Shown here: positions 5,866 to 8,800 of the stretch, one piece after another
Layout of the letters: the number at the start of each line of letters is the position of its first letter
Position numbering within the stretch: the stretch's first letter is position 1
Assembly: GCF_044324785.1 (NCBI RefSeq)
Contig: NZ_CP172127.1
Length of the DNA stretch: 64,000 nucleotides
Strand: one strand, 5' to 3'
Source of the DNA: Escherichia coli
GTDB taxonomy: Bacteria; Pseudomonadota; Gammaproteobacteria; Enterobacterales; Enterobacteriaceae
Position numbers: made by a program

Positions 5866-8800
5866 AACACATGCGTCCCCGTAGATCGGATAAGACGCGC
5901 CAGCGTCGCATCCGACATTTTGGGCACAGTAGCCCACCTACACCGGCAACGTTTTCAACAATCCAAACGCTTCTTTCATCCGATCCTCACTGACCACAAA
6001 GGCGCGAAGCTGGTCAGCATCGTCAACACCGCGCGCCACCATTCCCTGGCGTTCGGTATTAATTTGCCAGCGTAAATCCTGACGCTGGGTTTCGCCTGCC
6101 AGATGCAGCGGTAATTCCGGCGTTTTGATTTTCACCAGCATCGCCGGGAGTTTCAGCGGCGTGTTATTGCCGAGAAGATTTTTTGCCAGCACCATCGCGC
6201 TAAGTTGAATCGGTTGCAGGAACGGCAGTACCTGACCGTTAATTTCCGCGCAATCGCCCAGCGCATAAATATCGGCATTACTGGTTTGCAGATAACTATC
6301 GACGCAAACGCCGCGATTAATCGTCAGCCCGGCGCGTCGCGCCAGGGCGGTTTCCGGGCGCAGTCCGGTGGCGGCAATTACCGCATCCACTTCAATGCAG
6401 CGCTGGCGGTCCAGCGTTGCCAGAATGCCAGAATCCGTTTTTTCCAGCCCCTGCAACTGAGATTTCAACAGCAGATGAACGCCCATCTCCGTCAACCGAT
6501 GCTGCAAGCGGCTGCTTACTTCCGGTGGCATTAACGACGCCAGAATACTGGCAGCGTTGTCGATTAGCGTGACCGCTTTGCCTGCACGACAAAAATCCAT
6601 CGCCAGCTCGCTACCAATCAAGCCAGCGCCAACAATCAACACGCGTCGGGCATCCCGTAGTTGCGTTTCACAGGCGCGATACTCTTGCTGACTATTTAAT
6701 GTCAGCATTAACTCACGCCCAGGCACTGGCGGGACAAAGGCGCTGGCTCCGGTTGCCAGCACTAACTTGTCGTATTGCCACTGATTATTCTGACTTTTCA
6801 CCACATGGGCTTCGGCATCGATATCCGTCACCCAGGTGTGCGGAAACAGGTGCAGATTAAACTGCTCGGCAAATTCACCCGCCGTCTGGCGGGTAAGGTC
6901 ATCGGCACGTTGCCCCTGGCTGATAACATGGCTGAGGTCCGGTTTGTTGTACTCATCCATGCTGTCGGCGGCAATCAGGGTTAATGGAATACTGGCGTCC
7001 TGTTTGCGAATATTTTTCACCAGTTGGCGGGCGGCGAAGCCCGAACCAATGATCACAATGCCGTTGCTCATTTTGCCTCCGATGCCAGTTCGTCAAAGAC
7101 GTCTTTGCCGAGAGAGCATTCCGGGCAGAGGAAGTTATCCGGGACTTCACTCCACGGCGTTCCTGGCGCAACGTCCTGCATTGGCTCGCCTTTTGCCGGA
7201 TCGTAAATCCACTGGCAGACGCTGCACTGCATCCGTGGGCCGAGGTCAGCCGTCGTGGTGGCAGAGGTTTCTTCTTTAACTACCGTATTCACTGTGCTCT
7301 GCGGCAGCGGCGCGAGCGCCCACTGACGGGCGATTTCGCGACCGTGTTCACGGCATAACTCCAGCGCGTCCTGGTCCGGTCGCCATTTGGCTTTCAGGCT
7401 AAGCGACATTTCGAAACCCGCATCCTGCAGGCGCGTGGAAAGACGATCCACCGCACCGCCGCTCCAGCCGTGAGAGCCGAAAGCGCTGGCGCGTTTGTTA
7501 CGGAAGCGTAATCCGGTCATCTCCTCCACCAGCCCGGCGATTTTCGGCATCATCACATTATTCATCGTAGAAGTGCCGACCAGCACGCCTTTTGAGCGGA
7601 AGACATTGGTCAGGATTTCGTTTTTATCGCTTCGGGCGACGTTGAAAATTTTCACCGCCACGCGTGGGTCGGTTTCCGCAATCCCCTGGGCAATAGCGTC
7701 AGCCATCATGCGGGTGTTATTCGACATGGTGTCGTAGAAAATGGTGATTCTGTCTTCCTGATAATCAGCCGCCCATTTCAGGTACAGCTCGACAATTTGC
7801 GTCGGGTTATCGCGCCATACCACGCCGTGAGAGGTCGCTATCATATCGACTGGTAAGTTAAAGCCCAGGATCTCGGTAATTTTCGGCGTTACCAGGCGGC
7901 TGAACGGCGTCAGGATATTGGCGTAGTAACGCTGGCACTGCTCGAAAAGCTCCGTCTGATCCACTTCATCGTTGAACAGATGCTCGTCGCAGTAGTGCTG
8001 ACCGAAAGCATCGTTACTGAACAGCACCGCGTCGCCTGTCAGGTAAGTCATCATGCTGTCCGGCCAGTGCAGCATTGGTGTTTCGACAAAAATGAGCTGT
8101 TTGCCGTTGCCGATATCCAGCGTGTCGCCAGTTTTCACCACATTAAAATTCCACTCCGGATGATGGTGATGACCATTTATCGAGTCGATAGCGTTGGCAG
8201 TACAGTAAATCGGCGTATCGGGAATTTGCGCCATCAGTTCGGTCAGCGCCCCAGCGTGGTCCTCTTCTGCATGGTTAATCACGATGTAATCGATATCCGC
8301 CAGATCGATTTCATTACGCAGGTTCTGCACAAATTCGCGGCTGAATTTATGGTCGACGGTGTCGATCAGCACGTTTTTTTCTTCGCGGATGAGGTAGCTG
8401 TTGTAACTGCTGCCGCGCAGCGTTTTATATTCCGTGCCGTGAAAATCACGCACTTCCCAGTCACGTTGACCAACCCAATGAATGTTATTTTTCACCACAA
8501 TAGACATAGCAACCTCAATTTATTCAGCGTGTTCTAAAAAGATGTCTTGCTAATTGCAGATTGCGTGCCAGTTTTTTATCTGATTGTTTTTACTCTATAA
8601 ATAAAAGTATGCTCATTAATGAGTAGTCAAAATGACTATTAATCAAATGGTCGATATGACAATATCTATAGTCAAATTGACAGTGAGGCAAAGATGAGTT
8701 TTTCCGTTGATGTGCTGGCGAATATCGCCATCGAATTGCAGCGTGGGATTGGTCATCAGGATCGTTTTCAGCGCCTGATCACCACGCTGCGTCAGGTGCT

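Follow-up and report, generated by a model that had tools for sequence, protein, structure and literature searches.

The norR-norVW spacer of an Escherichia coli genome carries the canonical arrangement of NorR enhancer and sigma-54 promoter

The 186 bp that separate norR from norV in this E. coli genome almost certainly form the canonical norR-norVW divergent control region of the species. The region was examined within a window of 64,000 nucleotides, the whole stretch of DNA that was analysed. The original prediction, a NorR enhancer with a sigma-54 promoter for norV, was supported by the analysis, and the flanking genes were identified as norR and norVW. The prediction had also called the region a textbook confirmation and not a novelty, and every detail of the region had indeed been described before. 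Observed on the DNA studied here are the elements themselves, their strands and spacing, how far they are unique and conserved, and which genes flank them, while NorR binding, the need for all three NorR sites and the binding of IHF were established by experiments in K-12 (PMC2831303), and sigma-54 occupancy is taken from PMC4591121. These K-12 properties are expected to transfer to this strain.

The spacer was predicted to span 8508-8693, and this proved exact: it is the precise 186-bp gap between the divergent genes norV and norR, with the ATG of norV ending at 8507 on the minus strand and that of norR beginning at 8694 on the plus strand. The norR-norV spacer of K-12 MG1655 is likewise 186 bp long. 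The genes of the locus are as follows.

5938-7071, minus strand: norW, NADH:flavorubredoxin reductase, 377 aa
7068-8507, minus strand: norV, flavorubredoxin NO reductase, 479 aa, intact
8694-10208, plus strand: norR, NO-sensing enhancer-binding protein, 504 aa

Pfam searches of the 479-aa NorV gave metallo-beta-lactamase/ODP, flavodoxin and rubredoxin domains, and 477 of its 479 residues (99.6%) are identical to those of K-12 NorV. The norW product gave Pyr_redox_2 and Rbx_binding, describing a pyridine-nucleotide oxidoreductase with a rubredoxin-binding C-terminus, and is near-identical to its K-12 counterpart. The norV stop lies within a 4-nt overlap with norW, in keeping with a single operon. 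The target of the control region is an NO-detoxifying gene of the kind represented by norVW, hmp or norB, in this case norVW. The 504-aa NorR contains GAF, Sigma54_activat and AAA_lid_14 domains and the GAFTGA motif of the loop, and 498 of its 504 residues (98.8%) are shared with K-12 NorR. No Pfam HTH model was reported in NorR at E≤0.001; the last 62 residues, which form the C-terminal DNA-binding region, are unchanged from K-12. A cognate NorR, with GAF, AAA+ with GAFTGA and the C-terminal DNA-binding region, is encoded at the locus. Using megablast, the region was found in 5,425 of 5,426 complete E. coli genomes, where it is annotated norV | norR.

The elements of the spacer are given below in the order in which they run from norR towards norV, with negative positions counted from the predicted norV start.

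8685-8688, plus strand: norR Shine-Dalgarno GAGG, read from the sequence
8671-8681, minus strand: NorR site 3, GTCAATTTGAC on the norV strand, -137 to -127
8650-8660, minus strand: NorR site 2, GTCATATCGAC on the norV strand, -116 to -106
8626-8636, minus strand: NorR site 1, GTCATTTTGAC on the norV strand, -92 to -82
8589-8577, minus strand: IHF-type core candidate, AAACAATCAGATA, -45 to -33, two mismatches to WATCAANNNNTTR
8571-8555, minus (norV) strand: sigma-54 promoter 17-mer, CTGGCACGCAATCTGCA, from the motif scan and weight matrix
8544, minus strand: predicted norV transcription start, 19 bp past the motif centre, with a 37-nt leader
8513-8516, minus strand: norV Shine-Dalgarno GAGG, 5 nt upstream of the ATG at 8507-8505, read from the sequence

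The motif scan of the spacer revealed exactly three GT-N7-AC motifs, at 8626-8636 (GTCAAAATGAC), 8650-8660 (GTCGATATGAC) and 8671-8681 (GTCAAATTGAC), which bears out the three inverted repeats that had been predicted within the 186 bp. All three fit the stricter form GTC-N5-GAC, indeed GTCR-N3-TGAC, and they stand in tandem upstream of the promoter. Site 1 is the best and longest palindrome, TAGTCA-N3-TGACTA, and extends to 14-nt arms at 79% complementarity. The site centres lie at about -87, -111 and -132 and are spaced 24 and 21 bp apart, each step being roughly two helical turns.

The three boxes are base-identical to those of E. coli K-12. The mutagenic primers for site 1 and Site2, taken in their wild-type form, and the 21-bp NorR1 oligonucleotide of the K-12 study match the boxes described here (PMC2831303). 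The oligonucleotide, GATAGTCATTTTGACTACTCA, corresponds to positions 8640-8620 of the window, with its first base as the sole mismatch. In K-12, changing any single NorR site to GG-N7-CC abolished norV-lacZ induction, and site 1 had the highest affinity (PMC2831303). Enhancer DNA is needed for both the oligomerisation and the ATPase activity of NorR (PMC2831303; PMC2941729), and genomic SELEX in K-12 recovered this spacer alone as bound by NorR (PMC8249747).

The possibility that the motifs are functionless chance matches in an A+T-rich spacer draws some support from the frequency of the bare motif. GT-N7-AC occurs 213 times in the 64-kb window, and at 22 anchor positions at least three copies fall inside 186 bp. 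Three bare motifs in 186 bp gave a Poisson P of ~0.02 and were reached in 2,872 of 200,000 shuffles of the spacer (1.4%), so that their number is weak evidence for an enhancer. As this enrichment is too weak for the claim, the stricter form was needed. GTC-N5-GAC occurs 15 times in 64 kb, and three copies within 186 bp, or within 56 bp, are found only here (Poisson P ~1e-5; 0 of 200,000 shuffles), which argues against chance. A fourth GTC-N5-GAC at 8460-8470, within codons 13-16 of norV, was rejected as a NorR site because most relatives have GGC, GGG or GGA in place of its GGT codon.

The sigma-54 element was located as TGGCACGCAATCTGCAA at 8570-8554 on the minus strand in the scan. The GG of the promoter occupies 8569-8568 (-25/-24) and the GC 8557-8556 (-13/-12), giving the canonical GG-N10-GC arrangement on the strand of the target gene and at promoter distance from its start codon. 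The element therefore lies neither on the wrong strand nor at the wrong spacing relative to norV. The prediction was right that an element with TGGCAC is present, but its spelling, TGGCAC-N5-TGCAA, was one base short; the true element is TGGCAC-N5-CTGCA, or equivalently N6-TGCAA. The literal TGGCAC-N5-TGCAA is absent from the spacer, and its sole match in the window, at 54888-54903 on the plus strand, is unrelated and has the wrong GG-GC spacing. The error is one of notation only and leaves the biology unaffected.

A search with the sigma-54 consensus allowing one mismatch returned two matches in the window, compared to 3.4 expected by chance in 64 kb, a frequency that would again suit a chance origin. 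Because this search was uninformative, a weight matrix was built from the 41 intergenic-sense ChIP-seq sites of PMC4591121 Table 1, with norV left out. The norV element ranked first in the whole window over both strands, at 18.25 bits, confirming the predicted promoter on the norV strand and weighing against chance. The maximum over 20 mononucleotide shuffles of the window averaged 14.15 bits, with a highest value of 18.08 bits, and the top sigma-54 score on the opposite strand of the spacer was 7.9 bits. The promoter 17-mer is base-identical to that of K-12 and to the norV entry OS25 of the sigma-54 ChIP-seq study, which is experimentally confirmed in EcoCyc (PMC4591121 Table 1).

The start predicted for OS25 is 19 bp downstream from the centre of the motif, which leaves 37 bp to the start of the gene (PMC4591121). 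With the motif centre at 8563, the predicted start falls at 8544 and the leader is 37 nt, equal to the published distance. In DMS footprints with K-12 NorR, G residues were protected or enhanced from -137 to -84 (PMC2831303). Placing +1 at 8544 puts -137 on G8681, the first base of site 3, and -84 on G8628, which is the G in the GAC half-site of site 1, so that the limits of the published footprints coincide with the outer sites. Two independent published sets of coordinates, for NorR footprints and for sigma-54 occupancy, fall on the expected bases.

The original prediction had described the architecture as complete; this holds for the NorR boxes and the sigma-54 promoter, but the IHF site had been left out. 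IHF binds between the enhancer and the norV start site in K-12 (PMC2831303). When the E. coli spacer was scanned by itself, the IHF consensus had four weak matches, of which the best two overlap NorR site 2. When 17 enterobacterial spacers were aligned, the conserved islands were the boxes, TGGCAC...TG and an AATCAA-N4-TTA block situated 4-5 bp upstream of the promoter 17-mer, the remainder being diverged and A+T-rich. The block equals the IHF core consensus WATCAANNNNTTR. At this aligned position the IHF core is perfect in 9 of the 17 spacers, and the best match has one mismatch in a further 7; a perfect core is expected by chance at 0.0076 per shuffled linker. The position 8589-8577 was singled out because only the cross-genus alignment separated it from the other weak matches. 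On this comparison the IHF site known from the literature to lie between enhancer and start probably falls here; upstream of the core, 8590-8625 form an A+T-rich tract.

The element positions are thus conserved across genera while the other spacer DNA diverges, and the elements themselves are identical to experimentally validated ones of K-12. This conservation and the published footprints effectively refute a chance origin of the motifs, the probability of which is now negligible, and leave the canonical norR-norVW control region as the reading of the spacer, which no observation contradicts.

The closest comparison is with norVp of E. coli K-12 (Tucker et al. 2004 and 2010; Gardner et al. 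2003; Hutchings et al. 2002), which has the same genes, spacer length, three boxes, -24/-12 17-mer, leader length and IHF-core candidate. The two spacers are identical at 183 of 186 positions when K-12 MG1655 is used as reference, and differ at 8640, 8613 and 8607, all of which lie outside the boxes, the -24/-12 element and the IHF-core candidate. Position 8640 is 4 nt outside the core of site 1 and corresponds to the first base of the 21-bp NorR1 oligonucleotide, while 8613 and 8607 lie between site 1 and the IHF core, in the region presumed to be bent by IHF. The combination of the three alleles was found in none of the 5,426 complete E. coli genomes, and the 149-bp promoter-enhancer segment has no identical copy among them (best match 99.3%). 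In another isolate, E. coli AF3, an apparent 45-bp deletion would leave a single box, and norV is predicted not to respond to NO there.

A private combination placed at the flank of site 1 and in the presumed IHF-bent region could mean that control of norV is functionally changed in this strain. Against this, each allele is known from other E. coli, strain 7/2 having those at 8640 and 8613 and DSM 103246 those at 8613 and 8607; the affected columns vary freely between genera in the alignment; and none of the differences touches a core box, the IHF core or the -24/-12 element. A functional change of this kind is very unlikely. It is only slightly less doubtful that the two-mismatch IHF core, or the allele set at 8640, 8613 and 8607, tunes the strength or the IHF-dependence of the norVW response to NO. 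The three substitutions, which are the only departures of the spacer from K-12, appear neutral.

The arrangement was then compared with that of related loci. A pattern scan of 100,044 species genomes for three GTCA-N4-GAC boxes separated by 8-12 and 11-15 nt, in that order, gave at least 120 loci. Among the matches listed, 36 have a NorR homologue (45-97% identity) starting beside the triple box. Because the loci were retrieved by the triple-box pattern, the conservation of the boxes in this set is circular; the promoter, its distance and the IHF core are independent observations. In all 36 listed loci the target strand carries the highest-scoring sigma-54 weight-matrix match downstream of site 1, within a constrained range of distances, and the wrong-strand score is lower in each of them, far lower in all but one. 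The distance from the centre of site 1 to the C of -12 is 72-75 bp in 15 of the 16 Enterobacterales loci listed and 62 bp in the remaining one (L090), 59-61 bp in Pseudomonas and most of the betaproteobacteria listed, and 93-94 bp in two betaproteobacterial loci (L003 and L062). About a dozen more proteobacterial loci among those listed keep the same spacing between boxes and promoter although no norR lies next to them, which fits the second targets described in PMC1274295. About 70 of the 120 sampled matches, from outside the proteobacteria, were set aside as unrelated: in 32 loci identical units are repeated in tandem arrays, and the others are isolated occurrences with no sigma-54 motif nearby.

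The norR-norVW loci of Citrobacter, Enterobacter, Kluyvera, Lelliottia, Pseudescherichia, Siccibacter, Morganella and Moellerella have norR and norV in the same divergent orientation. These other Enterobacterales carry three GTCA-N4-GAC boxes with gaps of 8-10 and 13-14 bp, followed by an A+T-rich linker and by the sigma-54 motif at 72-75 bp from the centre of site 1 (62 bp in L090). Most of them have a perfect or one-mismatch IHF core, AATCAA-N4-TTA, just upstream of -24, whereas E. coli and E. albertii have two mismatches at the aligned position; many have TTGAT at -12 in place of the CTGCA found here. In Pseudomonas and the betaproteobacteria the target genes of NorR (FhpR) are reported to differ. 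Their promoters (hmp/fhp, norAB; Rodionov et al. 2005, Busch et al. 2005) likewise contain a triple tandem GT-N7-AC, in an enhancer that abuts the gene for the NorR homologue (45-54% identity), with the sigma-54 promoter on the opposite, target strand (PMC1274295). The distance from the centre of site 1 to -12 is ~60 bp in these promoters compared to 74 bp here, and most have no recognisable IHF core. This cross-species NorR architecture had been described by 2005 (PMC1274295).

The enhancer also bears on norR itself. Site 3 stops 12 bp (8682-8693) short of the norR ATG, directly against the GAGG of norR. Since site 3 is immediately upstream of this Shine-Dalgarno sequence, we infer from the geometry that the norR promoter or start lies within or beyond the enhancer. 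NorR bound to site 3 would therefore be located on or downstream of the norR promoter, which fits the negative autoregulation that has been reported, and bound NorR would presumably be the agent of that autoregulation. NorR is known to regulate both norR and norVW (PMC8249747), and negative autoregulation through a NorR site has been proposed for NorR2 in Vibrionales (PMC1274295). A consensus scan gave no sigma-70-like norR promoter on the plus strand of the spacer. A weak sigma-70 match on the norV strand, overlapping sites 1 and 2, was discarded as no better than those of shuffled sequences.

It could be argued from the same geometry, in which the norR promoter must overlap or precede bound NorR, and from the reports of NorR control of norR and of NorR2 autoregulation, that the boxes serve mainly as an operator for repression by NorR of its own sigma-70 promoter and only secondarily in the activation of norV. 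However, each of the three sites is essential for norV activation (PMC2831303), and in every related locus the spacing between the boxes and a target-strand sigma-54 promoter is constrained, which an operator does not need; the scan of the norR strand for a sigma-70-like promoter likewise speaks against it. A mainly repressive function of the boxes is extremely unlikely. The operator and activator roles are compatible, and repression of norR would be an addition to the enhancer function of the boxes and not a replacement for it.

Transcription of norV in K-12 is NO-inducible and depends on rpoN and norR, and the same would be expected to apply in this strain. In the proposed sequence of events, NorR dimers would occupy the three GTC-N5-GAC sites and, together with the flanking DNA, nucleate an inactive higher-order oligomer. 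Binding of NO to the ferrous iron of the GAF domain would then release the AAA+ domain, in line with the known effect of NO at the GAF-domain iron (PMC2941729). A bend introduced by IHF in the A+T-rich linker would allow the NorR ring to meet the closed complex of the sigma-54 holoenzyme, and ATP hydrolysis would open the promoter, with transcription proceeding from approximately 8544 through norV and norW.

Nothing new on mechanism follows from the region. Its value lies mainly in calibration: reading the raw sequence without tools was enough to recognise a textbook enhancer-dependent promoter, with the correct strand and geometry, the faults being a one-base slip of notation and the omitted IHF site. 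For the organism, the genome has an intact NorR-NorVW module for anaerobic NO detoxification, a module that is relevant to how the cell withstands nitrosative stress in macrophages and in the gut.

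The window was examined for further sigma-54-like sites using a weight matrix built from published ChIP-seq sites (PMC4591121), and the following matches were considered:

2824-2840, plus strand, CTGGCATGATTTGTGAA, the hydN promoter, published sigma-54 ChIP-seq entry OS26
35740-35756, plus strand, GTGGCATGAATATTGAT, sigma-54 ChIP-seq entry OA04, intergenic antisense, listed with ygaC
41608-41624, minus strand, CTGGCATAAAAAATGCT, sigma-54-like motif in the stpA-alaE intergenic region

The weight matrix was checked against the OS26 and OA04 sites as positive controls, although OS26 itself was part of the training set. 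The stpA-alaE motif scored 17.15 bits, the second highest value in the window, and was directed toward alaE, which starts approximately 330 bp downstream. The string was absent from the main-text ChIP-seq tables of PMC4591121, despite the sequence being identical in K-12. When the norV promoter element was searched for literally as TGGCAC-N5-TGCAA, the form written in the original prediction, the sole match in the window was TGGCACGCCACTGCAA at 54888-54903 on the plus strand. The GG-GC spacing of this match is one base below the sigma-54 requirement and it was not among the top weight-matrix matches of the window; it is probably a chance occurrence.

Two further elements were identified in and next to the norR-norV spacer:

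8460-8470, read on the norV strand, GTCAACGTGAC, a fourth GTC-N5-GAC box within norV codons 13-16 (G-Q-R-D)
8612-8623, CTCATTAATGAG, a perfect 12-bp palindrome with NorR site 1 on one side and the IHF-core candidate on the other

The fourth box lies at +75 to +85 from the predicted norV start and is not conserved, the GGT codon being replaced by GGC, GGG or GGA in most relatives, and it was most likely produced incidentally by the coding sequence. In K-12 the SNP at 8613 makes the corresponding sequence, CCCATTAATGAG, an imperfect palindrome, and the element was not kept in other genera.

The triple-box pattern used to scan the species genomes also matched, among the matches listed, short arrays in which near-identical palindromes of 11 bp, such as GTCACAGTGAC, recur in tandem with a period of approximately 22-23 bp. 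These arrays (L004, L025-L027, L037-L041 and others) came from Bacteroidales (Bacteroides, Parabacteroides) and other MAGs, and are unrelated to NorR.

One complete E. coli genome had an altered spacer:

2300879-2301270 of NZ_OZ547117.1, locus L126, complete genome of E. coli isolate AF3, with a 141-bp norR-norV spacer

Here a 45-bp deletion fuses NorR site 3 to site 1, leaving one box, CACTGTCATTTTGACTAC. Since all three NorR sites are essential according to published data and AF3 retains a single box, norVW should not be inducible in this isolate, provided that the deletion is real and not an error of assembly.

At the aligned position of the IHF core, 8577-8589 in the window, E. coli and E. 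albertii have two mismatches, whereas a perfect core of the AATCAA-N4-TTA type was found, among the matches listed, in nine other Enterobacterales (L007, L014, L015, L020, L042, L059, L064, L090 and L097). This sequence comparison suggests that the IHF site was weakened in a lineage-specific manner in E. coli and E. albertii.
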